Assembly (NCBI GenBank): GCA_036172245.1
Contig: JAYWIR010000022.1
Location: 1,054,001-1,118,000, forward strand
Direction: 5' to 3'
Length of the DNA: 64,000 nucleotides
Origin: Raillietiella orientalis
Lineage: Eukaryota
Part shown: positions 17,240 through 47,749 of the stretch, piece by piece
How positions within the stretch are numbered: the first letter of the stretch is position 1
How the letters are laid out: every line of letters begins with the position of its first letter
The notes under the pieces: generated by a model
Databases searched by the model: none
What the model saw: only the letters and a program-made list of their open reading frames with translations
What the model was told of the DNA's origin: nothing
Made by a program: the position numbers and the translations under genes

Positions 17240-18300
17240 TTTTAGAAAAGGGATACATTTCAAGCCTCTTCACGTTTCTTCGTCCTACGCCGTTTCCATC
17301 TGCGCGCGTTCGCCCCGAACCTTCCCGCTTACGTTCGGCGGATCGAGGCAATCTTCAAGGTGCTTTTCTGCAGCCGAAGAAACTGCGGCAGGAGAAGGTC
17401 CGAGGAACAGCAAAGCGAAGGGAAGCAAACAGAGAAACAAAGGGAAAGGCGAGGATTTCCGAAGAGGAGGAGGAGGCGGTTCCAGCTTCCGATGTGTCTC
17501 AGGGATCGACGGATCGGCATCCGTCGGCCAGTGAGCTGGAGGTGGCAGGGACGCTAAACGATGCGTGTGTGATGGAGGGTCCCTCTCTCCCCCACGCGTG
17601 GTGCGCGCTCTTTTCGGGAAGGAAGCTCCGTCCCTTCGCGGCGGGCTGAGATCCCAGAAGTCCCCCCTCCCCTCCCCCCTGTGGCAGCGGAGGAGGGAAA
17701 CCCGGCCTCACCCGGCGCTCGGGCTGGCGCACGTCGCGCGAGAGAGCTCCCCCTTTTCGCGAGCGAGAGGACGAGCGGGCCGCTGCGAGGGCTGCTGGAC
17801 GTCTTTTCCGGGGAGAAGGGGTGGGGAGGAATAGGCAGCGTTTCCCGATCAGGAACTTGAGAATGGGCGGCACGCTTCCCGGGGAACGCCGTGCCGAACG
17901 GTCGAACAGGGAGCCGACGGCGGCTGCGACCGCAACCCGGGGGCGTCCCTCTGCCACGGACGGCGGTCAGGAAGACGCCAAGCGCCGGACGGAGCACAAG
18001 ACGAGGATCCCACCTCCATCCTCTTATCCCACCCTTTTCCTTGGGCACGACCAAAAGAACTAACCTTGCTTGCAAGCGGGCGCTTGCATCGGAACCACGC
18101 CCGGCGCCACCTCTTGGGAGAACGGGGACGAGACGCGCACACACGCAGCGGTGACCCGCAAGGGAGGCTATCGGCGTTTCGCACGCGCTGGGCAGGAGGC
18201 ACCGTGCGGGAGGATCCCGAGGGCGATCCGGCGAGAGCGGACTCCGCATCAGCACTGGGAGACTCTCCTGCCGACGGATACACTCGAAACCGGGGCGAAT
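17240..18300 (+). pseudogene. Arrestin-like copy 12 (3' extent uncertain)
   Basis: FRKG...PLHV and LQGAFLQPKKLRQEKVRG ~ FKKA...KLTV and VDGVVLVDPEYLKERRVYV. Confidence 0.5.
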
Positions 18301-19500
18301 TAAGCAGACGTGCGGGGGCGGAGGCAGCCGGACCCGATGGGAGAGGGGGGAGATTCTCCGATCGCATGCAATCTCAGTACCTGGAGACGAGGCATCCCAC
18401 TCCTCCACCTCCTCCCTTCCTCCTCCTCCTCCTCCTCCCTGCTCCCTCCTCCTCCTCCTCCACCTCCTCCCGATAGCGGACCTGCCGCCGAGGAAGGCAC
18501 GTTTGCGGAAGCAGTCTTCTTCTTCCCAGACGAGAGGGGAAGAGCTCCCGCCGCCACGGAAGCGCGCCAACGAACACACCGCGCGCCTTCGCGGAGCTGA
18601 GACAAAAATCCGCTCCACGCCTTGTCTTCGGAGACGTCGCGCAGGACTCCTGCAAACGGAGGAGGAGCGCGCACTCCAGACGGGTGCGAGGAAGGCGGGG
18701 GAGGTGTCGCGAGATCGACCCTTGGCACTTCTTGGAGGGGAATGCGCCCCCCCAAAGAAGTCGCCTTTCTTCCCCTGGCTCCCATCAGCGAGGCCGCTGT
18801 GCACCCTCCTTCCTTTTCCGCCTCCTCTCTCCCCCCCCCCCCCTCCCTTTAATCTCTCCCTTCCTGCCCGACCCGACTATTGGGCTCGCTCGCGACCACC
18901 TTCGTAGCCCCACGAGGAAGGAAAAGAAGGGAAAATCCCAACCATCCCGATTTCTCGTTCCCGGAGTTTCGCGAGAACGGCGGATGGTTTCCGTCGGTCC
19001 GGTGACGGTAACGCGTCGCGCGAAAGGGGGTGAGGAGAGGGCGCGTGGACTGATGCTCTGGAGGAGACGCGCTCTCGCGAATGCAGGAAAGGAAGGGAAG
19101 GCGAGCTCGTTCACAGGCCGCAGCGTAGCCGGCGTCCACCTCTTCGGATCGCTCCACCGCGGTGCGCCTCTCTGCTCCGACTCGACGTGCGGACGCCCCT
19201 TCCTCGGCGGGACTCCGGTCAGTCTGAGGAGCAAGAAGCGCGCGCGCGCTTTCCAGAAGGCACAGAGGTGACCACGTTGTCCGTCCTTTCACCCACTGGA
19301 TCCCCTGGACTCCCCTTCCCGCTCTTCCGAGCGCTCAACCGGCCTCTCGAATCTCCACGAGTGGGTGAGGTGGACCAGGGCAGACTGCAACACGGTGCCC
19401 GCTGCATCGTGTGGCATCGGTGAAACCACGACCGTTCCCCACGAAGGGGGGGAAGGGGGTGTCTGGGGCTGTCGAGAAGCCAGTAGTTTTTTTTTCGTTT
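17350..19500. other. GC/CpG-rich island with (CCT)n tract at about 18403-18470
   Basis: Visibly the most GC- and CpG-rich stretch apart from the minisatellite; many overlapping low-complexity ORFs. Confidence 0.7.
18960..19500 (+). pseudogene. Possible arrestin N-domain fragment (copy 13)
   Basis: VSVG...ARGLMLW...GRSVAGVHLFGSLHRG ~ VYLG...VDGVVLV...RRVYVTLTCAFRYG. Confidence 0.35.
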
Positions 19501-19739: not shown

Positions 19740-20395
19740 GAGCGTTCCCGCAAGTGAAAGTCTTCCTCGTCGGAAGGATGGCTTTCTCCGCACTCGATGC
19801 CCCGGCAGGAGAAAGATCTGGAATCAGGCGGGCAGGCACGCTTGACCAAAGGCTTCCCGTCTTGCAGCCTGGAAAGCCTGGTGCAAGCGACGGCATACGT
19901 GCCTGGTCGCCTCCGACAGCGCGAGGGGTGTGTGTTCGGAAAAGAACTTTCTCTCCCGCGTCCTGGTGCTTCAGCAGCTATCAGATGAGCTTGCCCGCCC
20001 ACTCAGCGTCTCCTCGCATGCAGCTCTTTCTCAATCCGTGGCGGCCAGCATACCGGTAGTCGCGCATTTCCCAAATGGAAACCCGTCACCCCCTGCTGTC
20101 TGCATCACACGCCTTGCTGGCACGGATCCACTCTGCTCGCCTGAGCTCCCGGATTAGTCAGTGTGCCCCCTACAAAAGCGCTTTTGTGGAGGCAATGGAA
20201 TGCCCACACCCGGTCGAGCTGGACAGCTCCAGCTCCGTGCCGTCTCCACTAATGGAGGTGGGAAGCTGGAAGGCAACCGTCTTTCGAAACTCCCAGATTC
20301 TCCGTGACGGCGAGGGAAGCCATGCTGCGCGAGTTCGGCGGGCTCCCGAAAGCCTCCTGCTGCGGCTCTGCAGGTGTCATGGATGCTCCGACTGA
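19740..20395 (+). pseudogene. Arrestin-like copy 14 (N-domain)
   Basis: VKVFLVGR ~ LTVYLGKR; TFSPASWCFSSYQMSLP ~ TFRKDLFVANVQSFP. ORFs 19754-20059 and 20075-20395 share a frame across a TAG. Confidence 0.45.
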
Positions 20396-20399
20396 AAAC

Positions 20400-21345
20400 T
20401 TTTCCTTCTCTTCTCGAGAGCAGCTGATTTCTGGTCCGCCTGAGCCGTTTCCGAATGAAAGCGTTCGGTTCTCGATGCACCTGCATCTTGGCAGACTCCT
20501 GAGAAGGGCTCCCTAGCGGAGATCAAAAAAATACACGCAACCGAAGGATCGCACAACACAATGGTCATTTCGATAAGGCTGTGGAAGAATAGTGGCTGCG
20601 GCAAGAATCGTTCGGTCCTTGTTGCATCCCCGGAGGAAGAGACAGCGGAGACTTCTTCAAAGTTCCTGATTTGTGGCTGTTTTATGTGCTTTCCTTCCCA
20701 GGTCCAGATAGATAGCTCTTGGACTGCTCTGCGCAAGGGGTTGGAATCAATATCGAGGCCTAGACCACAGCATCCCGGATACAGAAGGATGACAATGTAA
20801 TTAGAAAATGTGGAGTGCGCATGCAATCGATAGCTCGAACTGCAAACAGGTTTTGAAGATTGAAAGTTGAGTTGCCCTTCTACAAGATTTGGCAGTATTC
20901 TTAAGGGAGAAGCAGAAGCCAACTCTTTCATCTCTGAGTTTCTTTCCTCTAAATAAGTCTTCCTTACCACGAAGAGGAGCTGCCAACGACGATGCTTTTT
21001 TCAGACTTCTTTAGCCTTTTTCTTTAGCCTAATGTCAAAGATGTCAAAGACTTCCAGGATCTGTCCGCTGCGAGATCTTGGAGAGAGATACAAAGAGAAG
21101 GCCATGAAGTACTCCTCTGTGGTAGAGATCCATTCATCACTATCCCTGTGGAGGTAAAGTGGATGCTGCAGAAAGGCCTCTAAAAACAATTCCCTCGATG
21201 CATACCTGGGTCCGATATCAGAAATCCATGCGTCCGGACCACTGAATCTCGCCAATGAAGAGTTTTCTTTGTTCATGGGAAAAGGCTCCAGAAAATAAGA
21301 AACCCCCCCAAAAAAATGGCACATGGAATTTTTTAAACAGTTCTT
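20400..21345 (-). pseudogene. Arrestin-like copy 15
   Basis: LFKK; YASRELFLEA; YLHRDSDEWISTT ~ RYGREDLDVLGLT; FDIRLKKK ~ LQERLIKK; GKHIKQPQI ~ NKTVKKIKI. Confidence 0.65.
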
Positions 21346-21418
21346 TGTCAGATGATCAGTAGCCTGCAGGGGAAACTTGCAGTCCTTGTCGAGCCAGAGG
21401 TCATAACAATATCACAGG

Positions 21419-23720
21419 TCAAGGAGACACTTCTTTCACTTCATAAGTGCTCAGGAGGCTGAGAATGTCGGTTTCCATGAGGTCCTCAACCGTATTCACA
21501 GAATCGCTGATTATTTTGAACGGCACTCGGATGTCCGAGGCTCCGAGGAACGTACCGGTGGTCGTATTCGCCTGCACGTAGTAGCTGACTCGGAGGGGCT
21601 TAAGCTTACCCACAGTGGACTTGACTTCTGTGGTGTCTGAGAGGCGTAGGTCTTTCATTTTTTTCGGGATCGTTTGCACCGCCAACCACTTTCTCCATCT
21701 TGAGACCATCAGTTTGATTTCGAACCACATGTCGAAATCCTTCCCAGATTTGACGACCTGATAGAGGAGCGAGGAAGCGACACCGACGACGTTTTTTATT
21801 GTCTTCCTCGGGAAGGGCATACCAATTTCCTGAACGGCGAATATCTGGAAATGGATAAATCTAAACCTCTTAGATGACTGCCATGGCACATCGAAAGAAG
21901 AGCTGTCGCGTGGGCAGTGGACCCACGCAGGTGGAATGTGCAAGAGGGGGGCGCGCACACTAAAATCAAGACAGGATTTCGTCTTATCCTCTAGGGAGTT
22001 GCAAGGCATATGGGGGGAAGGGCTGGGATAGAACAGCGGAAGGGTTCACGAAAACGGGGTAGCAGCAGCGAGCAAGTACCGCAGAGGGGGTTCTCTCTTA
22101 CCAGCAGTGAGAATAAAAAAAATTCCCCCATCCCACCAGCACAGAACATGGTACGTCTTTTCTTGCCCACAGCACCGAGAGGTTCCTATGACAGCCTCTA
22201 CCACTTCGAAGTCTCATTAACTCTGCGTTGCTATCGCGAGTTCTTGTCGATGAACTCCGTGCACCTCGCTCCGGGAGCACCGGGAAGGAACAAAAGCCAC
22301 TTTCTTCCGTGACACGGAAACGGTCTTTGCTTCGAAGTAAGTACCCGCGGACCGATGGACCTGGAAGCGACGTGGAGCGAATGTCAAAAATCTAACGAAG
22401 GTTCTCGAGAAAGCGCCGTTGTGCAGCTCGCCGAGCTCTCGATCTTTTTTCGCGGCGAGAGCACGATATGCGCCACATCGTCGAAAGCAGGAAGGCAACA
22501 GGAAACCATTCTGGCTTGCTGATCTCATCGCCTCGTGAGCAAACCTGGGACGCTGAAAGCGCTTGTGAGGGAGACGAACTTTGTGATGATTCTTCACAAC
22601 TTGTTAATCTTTTACAAGTTCCGCCACTTACTCTTAAGACGTACACGTCCTTCGAGCAGCGGTTCACAATCCTCAACCGCACGTTAATGGTTTCGTCCAG
22701 CAGAAACTCATTTTTCTCCAGTCCCAGTTCTGTTCTGATCGTGCCTTTGTACAGGCAGACGCTTTTCATCTGGACCGTCGGTGGGAGAGCACTAGGGTAG
22801 GAATGCAGTTGGATGATCTCTATGGGGAAGTGCAAGATGATACTCCTGCGCCTCACCATCGGCAATACCGGAGGTTTGGACTCTGGAAAAGATTCCAGAA
22901 AGATTGTCGAACTCTGAAGCCATAGCAGAGAATGCCTGTCTGCCAATCAGTGAACAGTCAAAGATGCAACTGAAGGAAATGAGAGAAGGAAGAGAGAGAG
23001 AGAGAAGAGTGAACAATTGAAGAGTGAAGACAATCCATCCTTAGATCGCCAGTAGATTAATTCGATGTGGCATCCAGGAAGGAAAAAGGGAAGATAAAAC
23101 GAGAATAGGGAAAGAGGCGATCGGCGCCTAGAAACCAACACCTTCGTCTTCCACGAGGAGTCAACCCGAGTGAGTACACTGTCATCTTTGAACTTACGTA
23201 AGTATGCCTTGATGATGTACGATACTCCCATGTATGGGTACTGGAACTGCTCGCTTGAAATCAAGCACACGCTGAAAGGTATGGAGTCATCTATGAAAAA
23301 CGAGAAAGGGAGAACCATGTCTGAAAAAATCTTCTTCAGTAGGGTCTGAAACGAGAGTTCATCACTGAGTGGTAGGTTCGCGAGATAATGCGGGATCTTT
23401 CCCAGGTATAAAGGGAAAGGCGCGAAAGTCAAAGGATCACAGGAAGGCCTTAATTGACAAGGCGCTGCTTCGTCTCGACAGATTGAGCATGTAAGGATGT
23501 TTCCCACGATTTTGCCTGATCTTCACCGAAGCGAGCTCTCGCGGGCAGATTTCAAAACGATCCCCACCGAATCTCGCTATCAGTTCTGAACCCAGTTTTC
23601 CTCCCTGGTTAGTTGTGATGGAGAATCTCACTTCCTGAACGAGGGCATGTTCCTCCAGGACGCTGCCAAATTCCAACTTTCATCAACCGTTTTCCAAAAG
23701 ACGCTCCTCCACTCGAGAAG
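21419..23720 (-). pseudogene. Best-preserved spliced beta-arrestin-like gene (copy 16); probable 5' frameshift
   Basis: Stop-free exons: SFQTLLKKIFSDMVLPFSFFIDDSIPFSVCL...MGVSYIIKAY; RRSIILH...TELGLEKNEFLLDETINVRLRIVNRCSKDV; IFAVQ...LAVQTIPKKMKDLRLSDTT...LRVSYYVQ...DIRVPFKI, then TGA at 21419. Phase-0 GTAAGT...TTCCAG intron 22631-21845. SVFWK and LVQEV...KLGSELIARF lie in different frames near 23680. Confidence 0.85.
22110..22600 (+). pseudogene. Arrestin-like copy 17, nested antisense in the intron of copy 16
   Basis: ORF 22010-22312: KKNSP...NMVRLFL...YDSLYHFE...REFLSMNSVHL ~ KKASP NGKLTVYL...IDLVDPVD...PEYLKERRVYV. Confidence 0.55.
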
Positions 23721-24299
23721 AGGATCCACATTCTGCATGTGTTGTTCCTCGTCGGAACTACCGTCACGCGTCTTCGTGGGGTAGGAGAGAGTAGTAGTAG
23801 TGTAAGAAACGGCGCACCGCGAATCTCTGATGGCCGAATCATTATCCTCCCTCGAATGATTAAGACTAGCTGGCAAATCAATCTTTTCGGCTCAAAGGAG
23901 CGCCAATGTTTCTCAAGGAGGAGAGGGTGAGGTGGCTCAGGTGCTCTCGGAAGGCCGAAGACTTATCTTCACGAAAAGGTTTCTTTTCTCTGTCAAGCTT
24001 TTTTTTTGAAAAAAAAGAAAAAAAGAAAAGGAAAACATGGGCCTTTTGTGAAGGGCAACATGGAGAGGAAGAGAATTAAGCGAGAGGGACCGGGAAAAAC
24101 GACCGGAAGAAGGAACTCGCATGGCACATTAATAATGCTCGCCCTCCCAATCAATTAGCTCAGCAAATTCGTTATGCTTTAGCAGAGCAGCTATTTGCAC
24201 GGATCCCAGGGATCACGGAGGCAGCTGTTCAAGCACGAAAATAGAAGACGGGAGTCCCGTGGAGGAGCAGCCAGAAAATTCTTCCGAAAGATCCCTAGA

Positions 24300-25060
24300 A
24301 AGGAAAGTGAAGGGCTGAGGAGGAGCGAGGGAACGTTTTCTTCGGCTCCAGCTGAAGAAGTCGCTTCAGCCTGGGCTCCGGAGAAACCACAGAATCTCCG
24401 AGAGCTCTGAAAAGTGCTTCTCGATGCAACCATGATCCTCAGTTGGGCATGAACGATGCGCATTGCCAGCCACCAGCGTCCCCTGATGATGCTGTCTGAA
24501 CGCGGTCAGTTTAAAAATTTCAGGAAGAATCCTTAGGGGGAAACGATCAAGGAGATGCTACGACAGAATGAAATCTCTGAGGATGTCTTGCAGTTCACCA
24601 CTGCAACACCGATCTCGCTTTTTTGCGTGATTCAGAAATTGGATCAAATCCTTATGAGCTTTTCTTCCTTTAAATCTAGCCTGTAGCCCACGTGCAACTT
24701 CTTCCCTCTTAGTTCATGCATCCAGGTTTCTTCTCTGATGGAAAAACTTTCACACGATCAAGCGACTCTGCTGCTTCGAGCTTCTTTACCATCTTCGCGG
24801 GGGAAAAGGCCTTGAAGACCTCTTCCAGGATGCAACTAGCGAGCAGTAAGCCATAATCCCTTCACTACTAAACAGTGGGAGAAGCTGAAACGTTGTATCC
24901 AGGGAACGAATATTCGCAGGGAAAGATAGAAGGGATCAAGTGTAGGTGGAAGGATCTTCGAGATGGAAGCGAATCCGCACAGCTCCGCAGTCTCTGACGA
25001 ACTGCTGCGAGCTTATCACGGAGCTTGAAAGAGCTTTTATAGACTGACGAGCATTCCGTG
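24300..25060 (-). pseudogene. Arrestin-like copy 18
   Basis: SVYKSSFKLRDKLAAV...CADSL ~ RVFKKASPNGKLTVY...FVDHI; AKMVKKLE ~ ERLIKKLG. Confidence 0.5.
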
Positions 25061-25127
25061 CGTGTCATCGAGGTGACCAGAGAGCGAGAGCAAGATTCAC
25101 AGGACCCCGCGGTTGCGGACACTTACT

Positions 25128-27400
25128 TCACTCAATTACGATCACGCCCCTGAGAGCTTTTCTTCCCCAAGCGGGAAGGGGGGACGGAAACGTTTTCAGT
25201 GGGCACTTTGGCCGGCATTGACCGTCGAGCTGCTCGAGTGCTTCCCGAGGTGCTCTGGTCACCCCTGCTGCGATAACGTTCCTGCGAGCGTTCGGAACTT
25301 GGCTCACCGTGGTATCTGATTTCTTAAGAGCCAGGTGTTCGGTTCGAGGTCTCCAATGGCTCCGAGCACGAATCTTCTCCTCTGCTTTGGAGAGGGGAAA
25401 GATCTGTGCTCGGAGCACATTTTTACAACCGGAGGGGAACTCCGAGGGCTTCTTGATTCCTGGAAGGACCATGGAGGTTCAAGTTCCAATACCGACCAGT
25501 CAACGGAGAGCACAAGGTGTTTAAACCCCACCGGCGCCTCACCCTCGCGGGTGTTCTGGGGAACACTCATTCCACGGAAAATCCTGCATGATTGGAAACG
25601 TTGATCTGTAGCCCCATCCTCCTCAGCTCCGCTCTACCCAGAAGTCCTCTCTCGCGGAAGTCTGTTTTAACATGTTGCTGAGGAAAATGGGACCTCCAGG
25701 GAATCCAAGATGGGAAGTGGGAGCGAAAGCACCTCCAACAGGAGCAATCTGTTCCATCGGCTGGCGCTTCCCCAGCGTCTGTACTCTATGTGAGGATACC
25801 CCACAGACGTTATAGTCAACGCAATTTTGAGGTCGTTCCCTAAGCAAACCAACCAACCAGTTTACCAGGTTTAAGGGGATCTTCCAACGGTTTTTCTTGC
25901 ACGCTCTGCATGCTGAACCCAAGGAGCTGCGAGCCAGTCCATCCTGGAGGAGATGGGCTGGTCCGTAGCTCCTGACGTCTGGATAGTGACGATGACGATA
26001 TGAGCTGGAAGAATGAGTAGAACCTCTTGCTTGGACTCAGGTTATGGCGGTGCACCCTCTTGGAAGAAAAGCGGGGTTCCTCATGAACGTCGGAGGATGC
26101 GTGTAGCACGCTGAGTGGGATTCTGAAGAGCTTTAGGAGATTCTTCCCTTTTTCCATCCTCTTGAAGGCCTTCCTGCTGAGCGAAAACTTTGCCTCCCTC
26201 CCGGGTCTCCAGAGAATCATCTTCGGTCAACAGAATGCTACGGCCGCGGGAACTCTCTGCTTGCGGCAGTTCCGGATGCTGAGCAGCGAGCAGAGGGGGA
26301 TGCTCCAGGCTGGATGCTTAGGATCATGGGCACGCGTTCGGATAGATTAGAGCTGGTGCGTTCCCGCGAGCCGAGAACACCACACGGCAGGGCTTCCTGG
26401 CTCGCGAAGGATCTCCGGAAACCATCCGTTCACGGAAGGGAGGAAACTCCGTGCACCCTACGCTCCGCTCCTCGCGCCCGCTGCAAACCGGATGCGCTTC
26501 AGGACTCACCTGACGTCTGGATAGTGCTACAGCATCTTGAGGACGGTTCGGGAACAGCTCTATGCACTTCACTGTTTCCTCGTAAACCCTCCCTCCTTCT
26601 TCCCCAGGGTGACGTCGAGGGCGCCGGTAGACGTGTATGAGCTGGAAGAATGGATAGGACCTCTTGCTTGGGCTCTCCGAGGAAGGGAGGAGGACAATTG
26701 TGCCGGTATGCACCGGAGGGAGGGAGTGTGCTCGAAGACATCTGCGGGAGCTTCGTGAAGATCCCCGCGGGAAGCTTCCTCCACTGCCACCCGGCCCACG
26801 CAAGCGATTCTCTGCGGGCGACGGGAGAGAAAGGAGAGGGGAAGGGTGGTCTCCTGTAGGGGTCAGCTGATCATCACCTCTTGGCGAGGTTCAGAGGAAG
26901 TCGCGCTCCCAGACCCTCTTCCTCCACCATTCCTTTCAGGGTCCTCCCTACATCCCTGAAAGGCCGATTTCCCAAGAAAAAGGAGTTCAGCCACTCAGGG
27001 GGGCAAAGTGGGGCGTTGGAGGAAGGAAGAGGAAGAAAAAGAGTTCTCAAGCAGCCCAGAACGAAAAAAAATAGAGAAAAGTGAGGACAATGCGAGAAGA
27101 AAGCTAAGCACGCTCGTACAGCAAATCGCTCTGGAAAGCGAGGAGGGAAGGACCGGACAGAGGAGGCGGGGGGAGGGATTCAGAGAAGGGGGCGAGAAAG
27201 GGAACATTCCAGTATCCGTCGGCGGGACCCCTGCTTACGTCAATGTACAGCCTGAGTGAGCATCCCAGCACGGCATTGCTAATCTTCACCGCGCCATCGA
27301 TCCGCGTCATCGTGTTTTTTTTCACTACGTACTTGAAGTTCCACATGTACAGGCTCAAGAGGTGGAAGGTGTCGGTCTTCTTCTTGATTCTGGAACACAT
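25128..27400 (-). pseudogene. Spliced arrestin-like copy 19 with internal duplication
   Basis: IKKKTDTFHLLSLYMWNFKYV...TRIDGAVKI matches the N-terminal block, followed by a GTAAGC donor near 27238; LGNDLKIALTIT ~ HGEPISVNVHVT; SDTT shared with copy 16. Confidence 0.7.
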
Positions 27401-28605
27401 AGGCAGGGAAAGAGAAGAGGAACGCTCTCCGACGCGCCCCTGATGCACACAGAATGACATCCCTTTCTTTCCCCAACGGGAAGACTTCCCTTCTCGTCCT
27501 TGCTCTACACAACAGGCTGGAAAGAGCTCCCGGGATGCTTCCGGTCTGCAGTGGTTTCGCATTCGTCCCCCTCGCCCTCCCGTGGGAGTCGGGGAAAGCA
27601 ACGAAAAGAACCGAGCGAAAGGGAAGGCACCGCAGCTTCTGGGCCAGGGGCACCACCCGAAAGAAGAGGAGCAAAGAATGTGGAAAAGGAGTCCACGCCT
27701 TCTGCGACCCTGCGGTGCTCTCAACGTGAGAAAGACGTTTCAGCAAAGCAGTCGTCTTCAGGGATTGCGGAGGTAGCTCCTTAAATCCCCCTGAGGATGT
27801 CAGCACTCCTTCCGGAGAGACTATCATCATCCTGCTAGTTCTTCCTCTTCCTCGTCCTCTGGTGATCTGTGTAGGATGAATCCTTGCCTACCGACTTCAT
27901 CGGCAGCTACTGCCATTCCCGATGTCTTCGGAGCAGGTCCAGACCTTCCCTAGGAAGCAGGAAAATGGTCCAACCTCTTCTTCACTCTCGAGTTCCCAAC
28001 CCGTGTCCGAAAGGGGTTCCAGAGCACAAGAGAGAAGGAAGGGGAAGAGCGAGGACTCCCGTTTCTGGATCTGCTGGTCAGGAGAGGAACGGCTGCAGGA
28101 CGGGGCACGCGGTAAAGAAGTGCGTGCTTGGGAGGAGGAGCTGGGACAAGGGCTCTGCTTCGGTTCTCCTATCAGGCTGGAGTGTCCGAAAAAGCTTTTC
28201 CCTGGAAGAACGCTTTCGTCTGGAGGAAAATGGCGACGGCAGGATCCGTTGCTCCTCCGACAGGGAAGAGAGAACAATTCGCGAACAAGCATGTCCCACT
28301 CGGCCCGATTCTCCTGCACAAAAAAGAGGGACGTAGGGAAACGGTTGGTCTTCGAGAGGAGCAACTGCAAAGGTGCACGAGAGAGGGTGGAGCCCTCTCA
28401 CAGAAGGGCACAGCCATGGACGCGGATCGAGCGAGACCAGTCGCGGCACCTCAGGAGGGGGATGCCTGCAGATGAAGAAATCCCTTTGGGGGAATATACG
28501 GAAGCTGCTCCCGGCCGGAAATCTCAAAGGGTGGGTAGAGAAAGGTCAAAAAACAAGCAGATCTGACAAAAAAAAAAAAAAAACACGCATCTTGGGAAAA
28601 AAAAA

Positions 28606-30357
28606 TTACCCCAAACCCCTGAGGACATCCTCGTCTACTTTTTTGAACCGCAGCAGGGACTCCACCATGGATTCCGGGAGGCCACTCTTCTCTAGGTGGC
28701 CACGGTGCTGGAGGGACGGTGAATCGCACCATAACAGGGGAGCCACCAGTCCTTCATCTCCTTCGGGTTCTATGTACGTGTGATCCAGGTCATACGTCGA
28801 GGCGTACCCTGTCCACAGATACAGTTGCACGGGAGGGCACACTTGGTCCTTACCCGAGCCTCCCAGCGAAGGGCAGACCTCTGCTCCCCTCGCAGGCGTT
28901 AGCCGGTGAGAAGGGCCTCCCTCTGCTCCCCTCGCAGCCGTTAGCTCGTGAGAAGGGCCTCCCTCTGCTCCCCTCGCAGCCGTTAGCTCGTGAGAAGGGC
29001 CGGCCTCTGCTCCCCTCGCAGCCGTTAGCTCGTGAGAACGGCCGGCCTCTGCTCCCCTCGTAACAGCCCAGACGTGTGGAGGGCCGGCCTTCGCTCCTCT
29101 CGCGGGCACCCGCCCGTGTCCAGGGCCGGCCCCCGCCCCTCTCGCGGGCGTCCGCCCGTGTGGAAGGCCGGCCTCCGCCCCTCTCGCGGGCGTCCGCCTG
29201 TGTGGAAGGCCGGCCTCCGCTCCTCTCGCGGGCGTCCGCCCGTGTGGAAGGCCGGCCCCCGCTCCTCTCGCGGGCGTCCGCCCGTGTGGAAGGCCGACCT
29301 CCGCTTCCTCCGCGGGCGTCCGCCCGTGTGCAGGGCCGGCCTCCGCTCCTCTCGCGGGCGTCCGCCCGTGTGGAAGGTCGGCCTCCTCTCCTCTCGCGGG
29401 CGTCCGCCCGTGTGCAGGGCCGGCCCCCGCTCCTCTCGTGGGCGTCCGCCCGTGTGGAAGGTCGGCCTCCTCTCCTCTCGCGGGCGTCCGCCCGTGTGGA
29501 GGACCGGCTTCCTCTCTCGCGGGCGTCCGCCCGTGTGGAAGGCCGGCCTCCGCTCCTCTCGCGGGCGTCCGCCCGTGTGGAAGGCCGGCCTCCGCTCTTC
29601 TCGCGGGAGTCTGCCCGTGAGAAGGGCCGGCCTCCTCTCCTCTCGCGATCTGTCGTGCTTTCAATTCCTGTCTCCAAGTTTCCATTTCTTTCAGCTCCTC
29701 TGGAGTCCATTCGCTTTCCGGCGTGAACGAGATTTCCGGCAACTGGGATCCTTTGGTGTCACCGCCCCAGCGACTTTGAGGAGAAAAGCTTGTTGTTTCC
29801 GGTTCCACCGCCTCTTGATCACCTCCCTTTTCCACCGAGAATGTAGTTTCGCCCATATACTGTAGCGACCACACAGTCTCCGTACTGCTGACAGAGGGTA
29901 AACTCGTAGTTGTCGAGCTGCTTCCCGTGGGGCAGATGGGTCGCAGTTCCGATCCAAACTCCTCAACCACTTTCTGTCGACTAAGATCCTTCTTCGAGGG
30001 AAATTTCTGGATCTTTTTCATGAGTTTGCGCAAGGCATCTCCGAACTTGGGATTCTTGAGGTGTTTCCTACGCGGCAGTACAAGACTGCAGATGTTATCC
30101 CAGGATTTCCTCAGGTCGCTCGCATGGAAGATGACCTTCCTATCTTTTGCAAACTCTCCTGCTAGTACTTCAAGATGGAAGCACCTTGTAGTCACAAGCT
30201 TCTCACCTTTTTGCCGAGCGACAGCACCTGCAGCAGCTCCCTCTCGGTCAGATCTTCCCGGAGAAAGAGGCGCAAGGCTGGAATCCATCTCTTGCATCTC
30301 TATTTCTTCCTCTTCTACTCTCTCCAGACACTCCAAAGTTTCCTTCAGCAAGCTCAT
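28606..30357 (-). CDS. 583-aa exon: charged region, 18 x 14-aa repeats, then start of an arrestin N-domain
   Basis: Longest ORF in the window. Ends VQLYLW...IEPEGDEGLV...CDSPSLQHR...RFKKVDEDVLRGLG ~ LTVYLG...VDPVDGVV..VDPEYLKER...AFRYGREDLDVLG. The terminal TAA lies in a G|GTAATT donor-like site. Confidence 0.65.
   Translation of the reverse strand: MSLLKETLECLERVEEEEIEMQEMDSSLAPLSPGRSDREGAAAGAVARQKGEKLVTTRCFHLEVLAGEFAKDRKVIFHASDLRKSWDNICSLVLPRRKHLKNPKFGDALRKLMKKIQKFPSKKDLSRQKVVEEFGSELRPICPTGSSSTTTSLPSVSSTETVWSLQYMGETTFSVEKGGDQEAVEPETTSFSPQSRWGGDTKGSQLPEISFTPESEWTPEELKEMETWRQELKARQIARGEEAGPSHGQTPARRAEAGLPHGRTPARGAEAGLPHGRTPAREEAGPPHGRTPARGEEADLPHGRTPTRGAGAGPAHGRTPARGEEADLPHGRTPARGAEAGPAHGRTPAEEAEVGLPHGRTPARGAGAGLPHGRTPARGAEAGLPHRRTPARGAEAGLPHGRTPARGAGAGPGHGRVPARGAKAGPPHVWAVTRGAEAGRSHELTAARGAEAGPSHELTAARGAEGGPSHELTAARGAEGGPSHRLTPARGAEVCPSLGGSGKDQVCPPVQLYLWTGYASTYDLDHTYIEPEGDEGLVAPLLWCDSPSLQHRGHLEKSGLPESMVESLLRFKKVDEDVLRGLG
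28868..29647. repeat. 42-bp GC-rich coding minisatellite, about 18 units in two subtypes
   Basis: Unit ggcctccgctcctctcgcgggcgtccgcccgtgtggaaggcc (HGRTPARGAEAGLP) and a variant encoding SHELTAARGAEAGP; one unit is 39 bp. Confidence 0.95.
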
Positions 30358-30506
30358 CTGCAGAACAGTTTCCGTCTCTTTTTTCTTTTTTGACGCCCTT
30401 CGACTCCCGGAACTCGTTTTCTGGACAGACCCTTGTGCTCAGATAGCTCTTCGACCATTTACCTTTACCTCGGAGGATCCTGTAGAATGCGCACCGCCGT
30501 CTAGCG

Positions 30507-30569
30507 CTTTGTTCTCATCGTCTTGTGTTTTGTTCCCATCGTCCTGTGTTTTGTTCCCATCGTCCTGTC
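30507..30569. repeat. 21-bp tandem repeat, about 3 units
   Basis: catcgtc(c/t)tgtgttttgttcc units encoding QDDGNKT on the minus strand. Confidence 0.85.
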
Positions 30570-31246
30570 CAAGGGTTAGCTCCCGCTCATCTGCTATCTG
30601 ACCTATTTCCGCCAGATTAGTAGATCCGGCATTCTCGTCCCCTTCTCTTACGTGTTCTGTACGGGTACCCTTCATCCGGGGCTAGAACCGCAGCGGCTTC
30701 GAAAACTTGGAAGCTCCACGTTTCTGAGCTCGATTCCCCAAGAGGATCTTTTCCGTCGTCTTTTGAAGTCATGCTTTCCTGATCCTCGTATCTGATCTGC
30801 AATACCAAAGAGCTGGTGAGGACGTCGAGCTCCGGGTGCAGGGAGTTTCAAAAAAGTCTGCACGTGAGCAATCGCGGAAACGCAGCGAAGAGCAACCCTT
30901 GTCTGAAGGCAACCACCGACTGTCCCTTCCCTGCCCGGTTGACCGAGGGTTCGCATCCTTGGCTAGACGTTTCTTGTCTTCGCGGATGCGGGACGAGGAA
31001 ATCGAGCCTGAGAAGAGCCCAAAATTACGCCGATTCTCTTCGAATCACCGTCCGTCTCTCTCCACGGGAAAGAACGCTCTCCCTCATATCCCTCCGACAG
31101 TCTTACCTTCTCACTAGGGCCCGCTTGACCCTACGAGATCACAGCGCCTCGAGATGGGTTCCCCGGTGCAGAGACACACGTCAGACCGATGACTTCACGG
31201 TGACCTTGCACGCCACCGCATGGTGCGCGTTAGGCCAACAGAGCTC

Positions 31247-39900: not shown

Positions 39901-40269
39901 CTCTCTCGGAAACCATTCCCAAGCCGAGGCCATACTTCCTTTAATAGTTTTATTTGTGCATTTCCTCTGCATATACAAGTGGATTTGCGTTTTTACACAA
40001 AGTCTGACATCATCGAAGAAAGATTCTCTTATGATCGGAGACGAATGCTCCATGAGTTGGTTACTGGGTATGAAAGGAAAGGAAAGGGGAGGATAGGATG
40101 GGGAGGGAAGCCTTTTCGAACATTTGTTCTTTCAAAGGATTGCAAGTTACGAAAAGTACAGGATGTAAAAATTAATGCAAATGACTGAAAGAGTTCGTGA
40201 ATCGCTAGAAGAGAGGATTGAGGAGGAGAGGCTCTCCTTGAATTTTTTAATGATCGCAGTACCTATGTA

Positions 40270-41400
40270 TTCTTCGATGAGGCTGTTTATCCGTTCTTGT
40301 AGTGCTGGCAGCGCTGTTTTGAAGTACCGGGCGACCGTACTTCAAATCCCAGTTTTGATTTTGCAGTACATTTCTCATGGAAGCAAGTACAATGGCCGCC
40401 GAGTTTGGAACACCTGTTCGCGGTTTGGCGCAACTCCTCCCAAATCCCTGTTTCTCCCTTAAAGTTGCTTCTCTCTACTTTTCTAATAATGCTGCTCAAA
40501 TGCGGATTGGAAGGAGCTGAGTTAATGATTCTGAACATGTGATTACGCGTTACAGCATCTCTTAATGGATCTTGCAAATAATGCAGATGCTGCTAAGCAG
40601 AAGGATGAAGTCAATACGAGGGTGATTTATTTTCGCGATGAATGCAAATTTCGTAAACACATTCCACGCGAGCAAATTATAGCAATGAAGTAGAGTGGTC
40701 CCATCTGGCAGTAGCAAAACAGCCTAGAGGAATCTAAATTTCCAATGGCATGTATTGCTCCAGTTATCTGGAAGTAAATGGTTTTTCGTAATGCTGAACT
40801 TTCTGGAGTACAGTATTACGAAAATGATGGAGGTGTAATCAGTAGGATGTTGGTGAAAAGGCAGTACCGAGCCCCCAAGTTGCGAGGGACATGAATGGAA
40901 TTCCGTATGGAATTGGCATCCATATGATGTTTTTTCTCATGAAGACGGTGTTAAATTGACTATGGCTTTAGGATGGATTACGACCTCTGAACACGGTACG
41001 TATCTTGGAGGATCTATGCAAGAAAGGCACAGTCTGAAGTGGGAAACGGTTTCTGGTGTCCAGTGGCGTGTAATTTGCTTTCAGGAAACCCAATTACATG
41101 GGAAAGCAGTTGGAATTTGTCTTCTGGCTACAAGTGGAGGATTGAAAAGGGTAAGTCGAAAGAAAGGAAGTACAAATAACATTCAGCTTTTCCAGGACAC
41201 CAAGCCGTTTACATTTTAAGTTCGTGTTAAGCGAATCAACCCAATGGAGTGAATCAACCAATCAGATTGGAGACTACCTCTATCTTTTTTGGTCTTAAGA
41301 TCATTGAGATCAGTAATACTCGGCATAATATATTTGTGAAACCTGGTCGTTTCAAAACCGGGAGAAATCACTAGCAATTTTCTGTAAGAAACAAGAAACT
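40270..41400 (+). pseudogene. Arrestin-like copy 26
   Basis: RLFIRS; YNGRRVWNTCSRFG ~ YLKERRVYVTLTCAFRYG; ILGIIYL*NLVVS ~ ILGIIVSYKVKVKLVVS near 41315. Confidence 0.75.
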
Positions 41401-41659
41401 TGGTGAAGCAAGACCGGGCATAGTTTAAAGAACTCTGTACGTTGTATAGTGATAACTTAATGTAGAGGAACTTAGGTCTGCCTGAATAATAGTACATGTC
41501 CGTGGATATCTCTGCTATCATGTTAAAGGCGCAGTGTAATAATTGACTAGTTAGTCCTCAGTAGGGCACAAAGATTGGGTTTATTAAACCAGTTTACTGC
41601 GTAACAAGTGAATGTTTCCATCTGAAAAATTTTTGACCGTGGGTCTAGGGAATCAATAG

Positions 41660-42900
41660 GCTTCAAAAACAAAATTAAAAGACTCGGCCTCCGCTGGAGG
41701 AGTGAGAGCACCTTTCTGGCGGTGAAAGAACGGTGAGCAGCCGTTTCCGTGCCGTGCACATCTTTTCGCTTAGAAAGCCAGAGGAGTTTGGGCCGGAGAA
41801 AAACTGATCTAAAGAACAAAACAAAGTTTGGCAATAAAACTTGCTTTGATTTGAGTTTTAAATCACTCATTCGTGAAGAGAGCAGAGAAGTTCACCTGAG
41901 TAGTCGATCCTACACGTAAGGTTTCGTACCGTGGCAACCGTGCAAGATTTGAATCTGCGCCAAAGAAGCAACATGATTTCTCCGAGCTGGACGCGATGCT
42001 CTTAGGGAATGGACGGAGGAAGAGCTTCTCGTGCACAAAAGTTTCCAAATGTGTAAAAGCGTGGTGCAGCGAGTGGTGGCTGTTGTGTACGTGAAGTGGG
42101 CTGCATGTGCAACGTCGGTTCAAAGAGGCGATTCCGACTCGGCAGCGAGTAGGTACAGTGTACCATGCCTAGGATGGCAACACCTGAAAGTGTATTTACT
42201 GTAGGACTTGTCATAGGGTTACGGAGCAGTTTTGCGGACATTCTGTTAAAGGAGTGAATGGGAGATTTGATTATAAATTTTGGATTGACATGCAGGCCAT
42301 CTTTGATTTTCTGTTTGTTTTTTGCTAAAACTCCGAACCAAAAATGCTTGATGGAACTTTCATCATTTTCACTTTTCCTGTTTTTCCGACTGAGTTGCTT
42401 TCATGAACCGGAAAAGTCCGTTGAAAATCAAATTACCAGCGGGTTTATGGATTGAACATCTCGAATCGTGTTTTATGTTTCTGGATTGCGTTTTTACTGA
42501 GCGAGAGCAAAAGACGATGAAGAGATGGATAAGGCCAAGTGAAGAAGGTACTGGCTGACGTTCTTGGTAACGATGCTGAAGTGATAAAATCCACTGCCAT
42601 CCTGCCCAAGTTTGGAAATGACATTATAAGAATAGATGAGAAGATTTTCTGCAGAGAAAAACTGAAGTAACTCCAGAACGGAAGACCTTGGTAATGACCC
42701 CAGACCTGGTAATGACGCCTCAGGCTTGCTGAACAAGCATCACTCAAGAGAAGGACGCCATCCTGTTTTATTAAGAAATGGTGAGGTGGGGATTAGAAGA
42801 GGAAAAGTGATCTTGATGGAACATGCTTATGCAAAAATTGGAGAAGAGAAATCGAGATCAAAATGTACCATGGCTCACTAGATAGTATTGTAGCTGTGCT
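41660..42900 (+). pseudogene. Arrestin-like copy 27
   Basis: KFG...FDLSFKSLI ~ RYG...LGLTFRKDL; GQVKKVLA ~ AQYKCPVA; KLK* ~ KLKH. Confidence 0.5.
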
Positions 42901-43149
42901 ACGGAAATGAATGGGAAGGCATGATTTTGTACACGGCAGTTGCGTGCACTGTCGCGAATGACGAAAAGCAGAGACGAGAGGGGCACTCAGGCTGTAGTCA
43001 ATATGAAAAGCCAAAAAAAAAAATGAAAACCAGGAGAAGGTGGAATAGAAAAAAGCCTTTTTATAGAAAGGCTGTGATGTGGATGTCAATCAACAGAAGA
43101 TTGACAAATTAATAATAACCGTGATGGTTCAGAATAGTATCTGATTTCA

Positions 43150-44300
43150 GGGAAGCAGATATCCCTGGAACAGGTTGTTATTAGAAAAGCGGGAAGTATG
43201 AGGCGGGGTAACTGAGGCGTAGTTGGGAAAGTAGTAAGTTGAGTACGAAATCCCAAGGCGGTTTCGTGAGGAGAAGAGGAAGGACACGTATCAGAGGGTG
43301 ACGGGGGAAACAACACCAATGAACAGTGCCAACGTCGTTTTTCGATGCTGGCACCGTGCATGAGACTGATGGCGCACAGAATGAGCTTCTTTATTCTGAT
43401 GAGGCAAACTACGAAACGATGAGCACGTGTTTATCCGAGTGATACAGAATTTCTGAGCCTCCGTAGAGGCACTTTTTGTAGGGCATGAGTAGGCAAGTTG
43501 AGTGCTACGTTACTTTACTTGCCTTTAGTTTCATTGGATTCTCTGGAATCCCTGCTGTTGAGGATCTACGGGTAGCTACTCGAAGAGTAATGGCGGAGTA
43601 GTGCGTGATGCAAATAGCAAAAAAAAAATATTGGGAACAGGAAGATGGAAATATTCGTGAAGCTCAAAGGAACTTTGGAGACAGATGTTCCTAGGCTGGG
43701 ACTAGGAGCGTGATTCATCAGAATAGGTCGCAGTGGCTCGAGAAGAAACATTTCCAGACGGGCTGTCGGGGTCTCTCTCGTTCCTGGCGGTGACTGCGAA
43801 CACAAGAAGACGCAGGGATTCTTCCAAAGCGCAGGAGGAATGGGGGGATTTCTTGGGGAGAAAGGGAACGCCTAAGAGAAATGAGGGAAGGGAGAGGAGG
43901 GAAGCTGCTAAGGGAGTCAAGAAAATAGGAACACAACACGGATCATGGTGCCACTTGGAACTTGAAATGCTTTTCACCATTTTGGTTCCTCATTTTTGAC
44001 TACGAAATTCAAAGTGGAGCCATCTGAGGAAAATTAGTGATCATGAGTTTCTAGAACCGATTTTTTGTGTGAGGCTAGCAGTACGCTGGTTCTTGAATGC
44101 TAAAGTGGAATTGCAGAAGTGGGGTTGGACCCTGAATTCTCGTGGACATCGAGAAATCTTCGACTAGATGAGGTTTGTTCCTTGGGATACCGGTACCGTA
44201 AATGATGGGGTTTATGATTATTTAACAGAGCATGTGGTCCCTGTTATGAAGAACATTTATAATACTTACAAGATATTCATTTTGAATGCGCGGCGAGTGC
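43150..44300 (+). pseudogene. Arrestin-like copy 28
   Basis: LLLEKRE ~ VYLGKRD; KGVKKI ~ KTVKKI; VRLAVRWFLNAKVEL ~ LGIIVSYKVKVKLVV. Confidence 0.55.
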
Positions 44301-44490
44301 AGTGAGGGATGGATAAGCGTGTGGTTTAAGTGAGGCTGAACAGTTATTATTCGTTTCTTGTGTGCCTTATTGGACATCAAAAAGTCTTTGGTTTTAAAAG
44401 GAGTCTTGTCATTAGCATGAGTTTCAGGAAATTTATTTGGAAAGGTGATGATGGAAATCCTTTTGGGTTCTTTTGCTGTCTTTACTGTTT

Positions 44491-45030
44491 TCCTTCCAGC
44501 TTTTTTTTTTTTTTTTCTTTCTGGTTTTCTTTTTTTTCTGGTTCGCTGAGTACCTCAAGAGCTGTCGCGCTCCTGGCAACTCACGCAGCTGTTTCACACT
44601 GTTCCACGCCCCCCAGGGTGCGTGTAATTCTTCAAGAAAGGGGTCACCTTGGGAGGGGACCGCCCTATGAATCCAGGAAGGGTTTGGAGTCCGTTCCTCT
44701 CACGCCTGAGGGGGAATCCCCGAAGGGAATCTCCTTCCTTATTCTCTAGGAAGGCATCCTCAGGGGGGTCCGCTCCATTTTTTCTTCTCTGAAGGGGACC
44801 CGGAAAGGATCCCCTATCAGGAATTTCTTCTCCGAAGAGAACCCGCAAGGGAACTGCTCCTGTTTGCTCCTCTGAAGAGAACCCTGAAGGAACGCTTCCG
44901 AAATTCGGAAGGACGCTGCTTCCCCGAAGGGAACGTCTCGCTTCTCTGCACTCACTGGAGAGGTGGCGACACACCTACTCCACGGAGCCCCCCCCCTCCA
45001 GAATGGGGGAGGGTCCTCTCCTTCAGCTGC
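44491..45030 (-). mobile_element. SINE copy lacking the tRNA head, with A-rich tail
   Basis: Body matches 52560-52900 and the reverse complement of 60880-61290 (e.g. gaagggaatctccttcct, ctctgaagagaacc, cttccgaaattc); poly-T at 44501-44517. Confidence 0.85.
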
Positions 45031-45149
45031 TGTGCCCAAGCCGGTCAGAGTTATCTTGGGGAGAATGAAATACAAGGAAGGTATAATAGAGGAAGGAACG
45101 CCTGGCAATTAATGTTTATGATCATACAAAATAGGCTTAGTATTCGGAC

Positions 45150-45440
45150 TGAAGTGTTCATACATGAGTATCGTAAGATGGAAAGCACTGATGATTCTTA
45201 ATCGTTAAATGGATGATTTTTACATGGACCGCCCTTTTTTTAAGAAAAGAATGATTTCTGCAATGTTTCCGCCTGAGGATACGAGAAGGTATGTTTCCGG
45301 GCTGTTTGAAGCCTTGAAAGAGCGTTTAAAAAGTCGTTGAGGCTGCACGCTGTTCTTAGCAGATGTTATTTTCATGAATTTGAATTCGTGCTGAAGTCGA
45401 GAGCTGCTGGGACTGCTCGAGAGCTTGTAGTATGTCAAAA
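45150..45440 (-). pseudogene. Possible arrestin N-terminal fragment (copy 29)
   Basis: YKLSSSP...RL...NSVQP ~ FKKASP..KL...DLVDP. Confidence 0.3.
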
Positions 45441-45699
45441 GCGAATTTCTGCTCTAGAGAAGCCGTGTTTGTACAAAAAGGTGTACTGAGGCTCGTTTCG
45501 TGCACTTTCTCGAAACAGTTATTTCCTGTCAAGGCGAAGTAGAAATGAAGGACCGTGGATCAGCAATGTGGTTTGGGACGAATAGCTGGGAGCTGAGAGT
45601 CAGCGACAGTAAGTTAAATTTGATGTTTTTTTTTCCATTAGAGATGTTTTTTTTTTTCTTTTTCATTCCATGTTTCTATTGGAGGCGGGTCATCAGAAG

Positions 45700-46800
45700 G
45701 AGGCAAAGCGCAATCGCGGATGAGATGCTGGGAAGAAAACGAGCTGTTCTTATTCTATATTTCAATGGCACCATTTAACGGATCCATGTCACCTGGTTAG
45801 TTTTCCGTGCGTGGTATAATGGTATTGATTAACAAGATGTTACATTTATTTGGACGAGAGGTAGTGCTGGATTAGGGGAAGCCATAATGTCGATTATTGG
45901 ATTACATCCACCCATGCATTCCTCTCGCTGACGTGGGATTTTATTTATTCATGAGATTATTTACGCGTATTGAGTCAGTGGAGAGCAGTATGAACTTGTT
46001 CCACGGTGTTAAAGTTTTAGGGTGCATATAATAGCACGCAAAATTGCCCAATTAGTAGCCGGAGAGTTTGCTTTACTGACAGCAATTATTTCATTGTTTT
46101 ATATTTGTGGGTGAGGGTTGTCTGGAAGCAGATTCCTATGATCTACATAGAATGGTACCCATGGAGTTTAAAAAGGATACTGATCTTTACGGCCGATGAT
46201 AAAGATGCTTGACTTGGGTGTACACGACGGCGTCTTTTCGCTCGTAATGTGTTCGTGATTTGGTCATGCGGTATATGCAGTGAGGTTGTCATGGAGCGGA
46301 AAACTTCAATATCGATGCTATGGACTCTGATCCTTATAACTGGGATCAGAAGTCCTAGCATTCTTTTTCCTTCTTCTTCAGTTTCCAGCTCGTTTCATGC
46401 TGGTGATTGATTTCACAATGAGTAAAACGTATTCTGCGAATAAAAAAAGGCGATTCTGTTTTGGTACAACAGTTGGAGATGAGAATGCTTCAGGGAATGA
46501 TGAAAAAACTGAGCTTTGCTCTGGATGAACCGAGACGAAATGGATTTTGTTTCATTTCGTCTACAGGCTGATTCAAGCAATAAAACTGCAGTCGCCATCT
46601 TAAGCGGTGGTAATGCAGACAACTTTTATCAACTGGATCAGATTTGCAGGGATTGTGGAGGATTGGTAAAAACGTCTCAATGCTCCATGTGATTTATATT
46701 CTTATAATGGTGGCAAGGATGACTCAGAAAACTAATTTGCAGTTTGAGGCTTCGCTGTCATGACCTAGTCCTTGAGGATTAATTATGGTAGAGCTCATCA
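45700..46800 (+). pseudogene. Arrestin-like copy 30
   Basis: LTDPCHLV and SVRGIMVLI...LFGREVV ~ FVDHIDLV and PVDGVVLV...LKERRVY; ILIFTADD ~ VKAFCAEN. Confidence 0.5.
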
Positions 46801-47009
46801 TTAGTTCCTTTTTCGACCAGTTGTAATGTGGACCCATACACGAAGCTGCTTTTTCAGGACTGATGTGATGACAGTGGTGACATTAACTGAGAGTGATTAA
46901 TGCAATTTACTCTTAAAAATAGAGAAGTCCATGTACTCCTTTGCAGTGAGCTGAAATGGATACAAAAATATAACTGGTTAATCATACCAACCAACATAAC
47001 ACCGAATAA

Positions 47010-47730: not shown

Positions 47731-47749
47731 TCTACACGTGGCAACAGGA

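Follow-up and report, generated by a model that had tools for sequence, protein, structure and literature searches.

The 64,000-nucleotide window analysed here, from contig JAYWIR010000022.1 of Raillietiella orientalis (assembly GCA_036172245.1), carries on its minus strand an open reading frame (ORF) with a tandem repeat array in its middle and, 4.9-7.2 kb downstream of it on the same strand, four GT-AG-bordered exons that we built by reading the DNA and refer to as E2 to E5. The stop-to-stop frame at 28606..30438 comprises 610 codons and is the longest in the window; its first in-frame ATG, at 30357, defines an ORF of 583 residues (P0001; 28609-30357). A first-pass annotation had described this ORF as an arrestin N-domain fused to 18 repeats with 12 T-P-x-R (TPxR) sites, the sites possibly acting as a phosphorylatable ligand of the protein's own arrestin domain. 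Translation of the ORF and cutting of the repeat in the ORF frame bear out the 583 residues, the 18 repeats and the 12 sites. The descriptive observation is thus real; a link to arrestins is plausible, though weakly supported and located outside the ORF, and for the functional story there is no support. The features on which the argument turns are the following, all on the minus strand.

28606..30357, minus strand: ORF of 583 codons from its ATG, with TAA stop; candidate large first coding exon, its last exon base being 28610 if spliced
29620..30357, minus strand: ORF residues 1-246, non-repetitive N-terminal region rich in E, S, L and K, with low-confidence predicted helices at residues 2-138 and 219-238
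28867..29619, minus strand: ORF residues 247-497, 18 tandem units (17 of 42 bp, one of 39 bp) with 12 TPxR motifs, predicted to be disordered
28609..28866, minus strand: ORF residues 498-583, Leu-rich non-repetitive tail, which may give the first N-lobe strands if spliced
23527..23662, minus strand: E2, one leading base and 45 codons, N-lobe-like; no ATG, needs an upstream exon with a phase-2 donor
23198..23345, minus strand: E3, 49 codons and one base, with a sequence (LPFSFF...GVSYIIKAYL) resembling an arrestin N-lobe end
22632..22882, minus strand: E4, two bases and 83 codons, putative linker and C-lobe start, with a sub-threshold match to Pfam Arrestin_C
21419..21844, minus strand: E5, 141 codons (21844-21422) and a TGA stop at 21419-21421, C-lobe-like remainder and short tail, containing one DILSLL motif

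The array is the most conspicuous part of the ORF. Tandem Repeats Finder places it at 28878-29647 as 18.4 copies of a 42-bp unit (87% matches, score 894), and cutting in the ORF frame yields 17 units of 14 residues and one of 13 (residues 247-497). Units 1-13 are of the HGRTPARGAEAGLP type; beyond them lie one degenerate unit, three reading HELTAARGAE(A/G)GPS and one reading HRLTPARGAEVCPS. A 37-nt core of the unit has 11 matches in the window at up to 3 mismatches, with none expected, and all 11 lie inside the array. The DNA is GC-rich (0.77 at 29001-29500), and Ala, Gly, Pro and Arg make up 65% of the 251 encoded residues, whose net charge is +10. Fifteen distinct DNA units occur among the 18, with three exact duplicate pairs, and such exact duplicates argue that the expansion of the array is recent. 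In a single-sequence AlphaFold2 model, residues 240-548 have no secondary structure, at low confidence. Collectively, these features make the array most readily understood as a coding minisatellite that expanded recently and gives rise to a disordered segment. Coding minisatellites and low-complexity tandem repeats in lineage-specific eukaryotic proteins are the best-fitting category for it, since they share with it units in multiples of three, recent expansion and a disordered array rich in Ala, Gly, Pro and Arg; we find no substantive difference from them.

Whether the ORF is translated cannot be read from the array itself. It had been pointed out that units of 42 or 39 bp keep the frame; both lengths are indeed multiples of three, but all six frames are open across the array, and its openness is therefore uninformative on coding. 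Other properties of the array weigh against a coding interpretation. The 17 full-length units show 23, 34 and 32 differences from their consensus in codon positions 1, 2 and 3, that is, no third-position excess, and 14 of the differences counted in the ORF frame are synonymous against 75 non-synonymous ones, whereas random change should make about 30% of them synonymous; in both counts, differences shared by descent enter more than once. The codon score of the array, -0.77 bits per codon, is the worst of any frame tested. Because the array cannot answer the question, the coding argument rests on its flanks. Upstream, 263 non-repetitive codons stay open at 50% GC, for which base composition gives a P of about 7e-7, and in 20000 shuffles an open frame never persisted. 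A codon table derived solely from E2-E5 gives the ORF frame the best score of six frames in both flanks (-0.037 bits per codon in the N-terminal region, +0.072 in the tail), and both values fall within the range of the leave-one-out scores of E2-E5 themselves (-0.073 to +0.168). Composition is protein-like in the ORF sense frame and S/F/L-rich in the antisense frame, and ahead of the array no consensus-like donor is found except one at about 30203 (AAAG/GTGAGA).

A sceptical interpretation holds that a GC-rich minisatellite sits in non-coding or decayed sequence and that the open flanks are due to chance or are remnants of a former exon. It draws on the six open frames, on unit differences without a coding signature and on an array codon usage unlike that of the nearby exons, as well as on the 95 open codons past the repeats (the end of the last unit plus the tail), which at P 0.03 are not significant alone. 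It also draws on the isolation of the flanks in the databases. Searched against 1.84 billion representative proteins, the whole ORF gave 38 matches, all repeat-rich proteins aligning to the repeat region, with the best stretch of each within residues 177-497; none of them aligned best to residues 1-176 or 498-583. Word-based searches found no homologues of residues 1-240 among proteins of 320-1021 or 1022-2915 residues, the best ESM Atlas score for the same residues (0.78) was below a meaningful level, and metagenome contigs contained no relatives of the N-terminal region. Against this interpretation stand the long non-repetitive stretch upstream of the array, the single frame out of six that scores best for both flanks with a codon table taken from other exons, and the contrast between sense and antisense composition, so that we consider it rather improbable. 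The ORF is probably coding, with the array translated merely because it is flanked by coding sequence on both sides, and it most likely represents a genuine coding exon, restricted to its lineage, within a eukaryotic gene that has spliceosomal introns.

The first-pass annotation further proposed that the ORF runs into an arrestin-like N-terminal block at its end. Neither Pfam, a sequence search of the PDB nor AlphaFold2 returned such a block. In Pfam, no family was matched at E up to 10 by the whole ORF, by its last 86 residues or by a read-through that includes the 80 open codons upstream; the PDB search of the ORF gave two irrelevant matches only (E 0.4 and 0.74). The single-sequence AlphaFold2 model of the ORF, with a mean predicted local distance difference test (pLDDT) of 44.3, is too poor for a fold and contains helices at residues 2-138 and 219-238, and its tail, at a pLDDT of about 30-55, has three short low-confidence helices and no strands. 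An absence of Arrestin_N similarity at the ORF end had been named beforehand as an outcome that would count against the proposal, and profile and structure checks found no such similarity there. It should be noted that a piece of 25-86 residues of a divergent domain would hardly score anyway. We also predicted the tail, E2 and E3 as a three-chain complex, in the manner of fragment complementation, and the score of 0.02, set against a mark of 0.34, speaks neither for nor against their belonging together.

What arrestin similarity there is lies downstream, in E2-E5. A Pfam scan of the 100 minus-strand ORFs of at least 45 residues at 19-33 kb matched Arrestin_C to the ORF at 22395-22946 (E 0.06), and E4 alone matched the same family with 15.1 bits (E 0.03) over profile positions 2-37 of 137, the match being broken off by the exon end. 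The LPFSFF...GVSYIIKAYL pattern at the end of E3 is one that we take to be typical of alpha-arrestin N-lobe ends, and the pattern in E5 (...LRVSYYVQA...IRVPFKII) is presumably typical of C-lobe ends. We credit the arrestin identity of the four exons because arrestin had been named independently in the first-pass annotation and because the profile match sits at the co-linear position.

Several results pull in the other direction. The score of E4, whose best Pfam match this is, lies below the gathering cut-off of 27.7 bits, and among the 100 ORFs scanned there were five matches at E of 0.06 or less, four of them to unrelated families, so that the Arrestin_C match by itself is at noise level. Arrestin_N (PF00339) was matched at E up to 10 neither by the ORF nor by its last 86 residues, E2 or E3, a weak test on fragments of 45-86 residues, and at E up to 1 by none of the 100 ORFs at 19-33 kb. 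Pfam gave no match for E2, E3, E5 or the ORF tail; the Arrestin_C (PF02752) domain would be split by a 787-nt intron, and E4 and E5 were accordingly scored piecewise. The PDB sequence search found nothing relevant for E4 or E5, and an AlphaFold2 model of E5 alone (pLDDT 35.9) is too poor for a fold. For E5 the ESM Atlas gave no usable match, metagenome contigs no relatives, and proteins of 365-2000 residues no homologues, shorter proteins not having been searched. On balance we regard it as quite likely, if unproven, that E2-E5 are arrestin-like. The distal exons had been thought degraded, a view that does not hold: the stops fall in inferred introns, and the four exons are intact and join in frame via GT-AG. 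Just past the stop of the arrestin-like exons, at 20380-21411 on the minus strand, there are two long open stretches in one frame, split by a single stop at 21001-21003 and without a Pfam match, which may be 3' untranslated region or part of a neighbouring gene.

Whether the ORF and E2-E5 form one gene depends on the exon that precedes E2. E2 lacks an ATG, and a stop closes its frame 18 nt further up, so that an upstream exon ending in phase 2 is needed. The sites that come into question are these.

28608..28609, minus strand: candidate phase-2 GT donor GGG/GTAATT, coinciding in part with the final Gly codon and TAA stop of the ORF
28852..28853, minus strand: alternative, consensus-like donor CGG/GTAAGG just past the repeats, phase 1, last exon base 28854, read from the sequence
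27249..27310, minus strand: rival first exon, open, with an ATG and bounded by a phase-2 GT (GCT/GTACAT), with the top codon score and a poor donor

The donor-like site that had been seen at the ORF end is thus there, as GG/GTAATT overlapping the stop. Joined to the E2 acceptor at 23664/23663, it would restore a split codon (GG+C) that again reads Gly, and the complete join of the ORF with E2, E3, E4 and E5 measures 2709 nt, or 902 codons in which the only stop is the final one; every junction is GT-AG, and the introns are 4947, 181, 315 and 787 nt long. Ten phase-2 sites at 23663-30700 fit the donor pattern GTRA[GAT][TGA], which we wrote so as to admit GTAATT too, and the ORF-end donor is the only one with a positive upstream codon score (+2.7 over 30 codons, the 96th percentile of stop-free windows, and +4.4 over 60). 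The usual donor consensus is MAG/GTRAGT; of its seven variable positions, the ORF-end donor matches four, the three internal donors three to five, and the donor at 27249 two. The alternative donor just past the repeats is stronger than that at the ORF end and fits the E4 acceptor only, a splice that would skip the N lobe. We tentatively favour a gene model in which the ORF would be spliced to E2-E5 to give an arrestin-type protein of 902 residues; as assembled from the DNA, this model is possible and falls somewhat short of probable. The proposed fusion of the ORF to arrestin thus survives in part: an in-frame splice into arrestin-like exons of the same strand is possible, but the similarity lies outside the ORF and is weakly supported.

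Nearly as likely is an arrangement of two genes, with the ORF as a stand-alone orphan protein (a helical N-terminal part, the disordered repeat and a small C-terminal part) ending at the TAA at 28606, and an arrestin-like gene that starts from a promoter of its own with a short first exon somewhere at 23.7-28.6 kb. The ORF does end in a proper stop, followed by T-rich sequence, and its tail, as described above, is in no way arrestin-like by Pfam or AlphaFold2. Elsewhere in the arrestin-like gene the introns measure just 181-787 nt, and the first intron of the fused model would be 6 to 27 times their length. When donor quality is ignored, the ORF-end donor ranks only 6th by codon score among the 123 phase-2 GT sites at 23700-28900, the first place being taken by the candidate at 27249-27310, to which the arrestin-trained table gives 8.5; the E2 acceptor (…GGAATTTGGCAG/), moreover, is the weakest of the four. 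These points all tell against a single gene. On the other hand, the donor of the 27249 candidate is poor, with half as many consensus positions as that of the ORF end (2/7 vs 4/7), and its codon score may merely mirror local AT-richness within a GC-rich interval. Two genes would also require the stop to overlap a GT in the exact phase of E2 by coincidence, the chance of which we put at roughly 0.1-0.3, a figure that is estimated and not computed. The ratio of observed to expected CpG, 0.86 window-wide, reveals no promoter-marking island. The GC-rich sequence that separates the ORF from the arrestin-like exons contains, in addition, a 40-nt direct repeat with 90% identity (25999-26038 and 26636-26675, 637 nt apart), and the resembling translations around it may reflect a local duplication or a dispersed element.

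At its other end the ORF is preceded by a further open stretch in the same frame.

30439..30681, minus strand: open stretch of 80 codons upstream of the ORF and in its frame, containing an ATG (30675) and closed by a TGA at 30439-30441

The TGA, located at 30439 by the first-pass annotation and cited there as leaving the status of the gene open, is present at 30439-30441 in the ORF frame. Inside the 80-codon stretch, at 30508-30568 on the minus strand, a 21-bp tandem repeat of 2.9 copies (95% matches) encodes a QDDGNKT-like peptide in the ORF frame. The stretch could join the ORF solely via a 48-nt GT...AG segment, 30421-30468, as a putative mini-intron. This segment and one of 50 nt at 23663-23712, both on the minus strand, would as mini-introns tie upstream open stretches in frame to the ORF and to E2, respectively; such short introns are doubtful because the others in the model are 181-4947 nt long.

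If the ORF is spliced to E2-E5, the protein would begin with a helical, acidic region, continue into the disordered 251-residue array produced by recent expansion of a 42-bp coding minisatellite, and pass through a non-repetitive tail of 86 residues. Splicing from the GT donor at the ORF end across the 4.9-kb intron would then append E2-E5, which may encode a divergent two-lobed domain of the alpha-arrestin-like fold, so that the predicted product would be a 902-residue adaptor of the arrestin type with a long disordered N-terminal extension. We read the array as a disordered repeat extension specific to the lineage, probably carried by an alpha-arrestin-like protein. The TPxR motifs, should they be functional at all, would likeliest be phosphorylated at multiple sites by proline-directed kinases and thereby tune the localisation or activity of the adaptor.

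As for the motifs themselves, [S/T]-P-x-[K/R] is the full consensus of cyclin-dependent kinases (CDKs). Twelve units carry TPxR, as TPAR or TPTR, and account for 12 of the 13 [ST]Px[KR] motifs in the whole ORF. The clustering of such motifs in a segment without predicted secondary structure, at low confidence, is what is looked for in a multisite CDK region. The unit differences (14 synonymous, 75 non-synonymous) give no indication of selection maintaining the sites, and only one of the last five units retains TPxR. As the units bear no peptide-level signature of selection, the 12 sites are copies of one amplified unit, and the TPxR motifs are a by-product of amplifying that unit, with no sign of constraint. 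In this they differ from the multisite CDK clusters that they otherwise resemble, in that T-P-x-R fits the CDK consensus and is repeated 12 times: here the sites are copied from one unit and not independently maintained. With regard to cyclin docking, the 902-residue model contains two loose RxL-like matches, neither of them in the array.

The mechanism put forward in the first-pass annotation is more ambitious. It has a CDK-phosphorylated TPxR array docking on its own arrestin N lobe in cis, or else the protein being a sperm- or chromatin-associated arrestin derivative. If the 902-residue fusion were real, such an array would act as a built-in, multiply phosphorylated pseudo-ligand on its own N lobe, switched by cell-cycle or mitogen-activated protein (MAP) kinases and not by a receptor tail. 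The 13 [ST]Px[KR] motifs in a region modelled without structure and the possible fusion to an arrestin-like domain would fit the idea, as would the behaviour of beta-arrestins, whose N lobes bind receptor tails phosphorylated at several sites and, in the basal state, are occupied by the protein's own C-tail. To our knowledge, alpha-arrestin-like proteins generally lack the phosphate sensor of beta-arrestins, which counts against it. Neither the fusion nor the arrestin fold is proven, the motifs owe their identity to common descent and show no constraint, and four of the five distal units have no TPxR; the cis-acting phospho-switch thus finds no footing in these results. The comparison with the SPKK motifs of sperm histones fails because TPAR and TPTR have one basic residue after the proline, not two, and the net charge of the array, just +10 over its whole length, does not suggest a chromatin protein either. 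We consider docking in cis, like a sperm or chromatin role, very improbable. What remains is a fairly ordinary gene model, itself unproven, in which use of the TPxR sites has no support.

Among known systems, the alpha-arrestins or ARTs (Art1 and Rim8/Art9 in yeast, ARRDC and TXNIP proteins in animals) come closest, by virtue of the putative two-lobed E2-E5 and of the weak Arrestin_C match at the expected place. Unlike in these proteins, no PPxY or [LP]PxY motif, by which Nedd4 or Rsp5 would be recruited, is found in the 902-residue model, a motif that some members of the family also lack. Membership in the family is not established, the Pfam scores being below threshold and no orthologue having been found. 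If the fusion is real, the yeast alpha-arrestins, with their long phospho-regulated disordered regions, would be the closest analogy to the array described here, although the disordered part in our model is a near-perfect tandem array of 14-residue units and not unique sequence. Three reports describe control of yeast alpha-arrestin activity by multisite phosphorylation of disordered regions (PMC4472021, PMC6400557, bioRxiv 10.1101/553677). Our search of the literature for arrestins with disordered, proline-directed tandem repeats returned nothing relevant. Visual and beta-arrestins are likewise covered by the Arrestin_C family, and it is their binding of phosphorylated tails and autoinhibition by the C-tail that underlie the idea of a ligand in cis. 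The model differs from them in having no clathrin-box match by regular expression, and neither the ORF nor E4 or E5 has a sequence match to solved arrestin chains; one acidic dileucine-like motif, the DILSLL of E5, lies near the C terminus.

The wider window offers little by way of known families. At E of 0.001 or less, Pfam recognised no family in 155 of the 175 window ORFs of at least 95 residues, namely those outside the repeat, and none in the 150 best-scoring of 796 window ORFs of 40-94 residues, a choice that omitted minus-strand ORFs overlapping 19-33 kb, of which those of at least 45 residues were part of the separate scan of 100 ORFs. Toxin_24, APC_r and VbhA were called on plus-strand frames over the repeat and were rejected as summed matches of tiny profiles, no single stretch of which passed alone. 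Rfam had no matches in the window. From the lack of Pfam and Rfam families we conclude that the source lineage is not covered by the protein collections tried; evidently, the exons of the window are short and the lineage is poorly represented in databases. Two regions away from the ORF stand out by composition. A block of 62-65% GC at 17.2-19.3 kb, around 17557-18876 on the minus strand, contains an open frame of 440 codons and overlapping open frames on both strands; it includes a (CTC)n run at 18400-18470, gave no match in Pfam, and is either a GC-rich low-complexity exon or an artefact of composition-driven openness. Unlike in the rest of the window, the GC skew at 40001-48000 stays positive throughout (+0.13 to +0.26 per 2-kb window) at 40-45% GC.

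The main value of this work is corrective, in that the arrestin similarity falls outside the ORF, the distal exons prove intact, and 12 sites that fit a kinase consensus are one motif copied many times. Should the fusion prove real, it would add a divergent arrestin-type adaptor from a eukaryotic lineage that the databases tried do not cover. Its unusually regular and recently expanded disordered extension would then constitute a natural case for learning how repeat number tunes such an adaptor.

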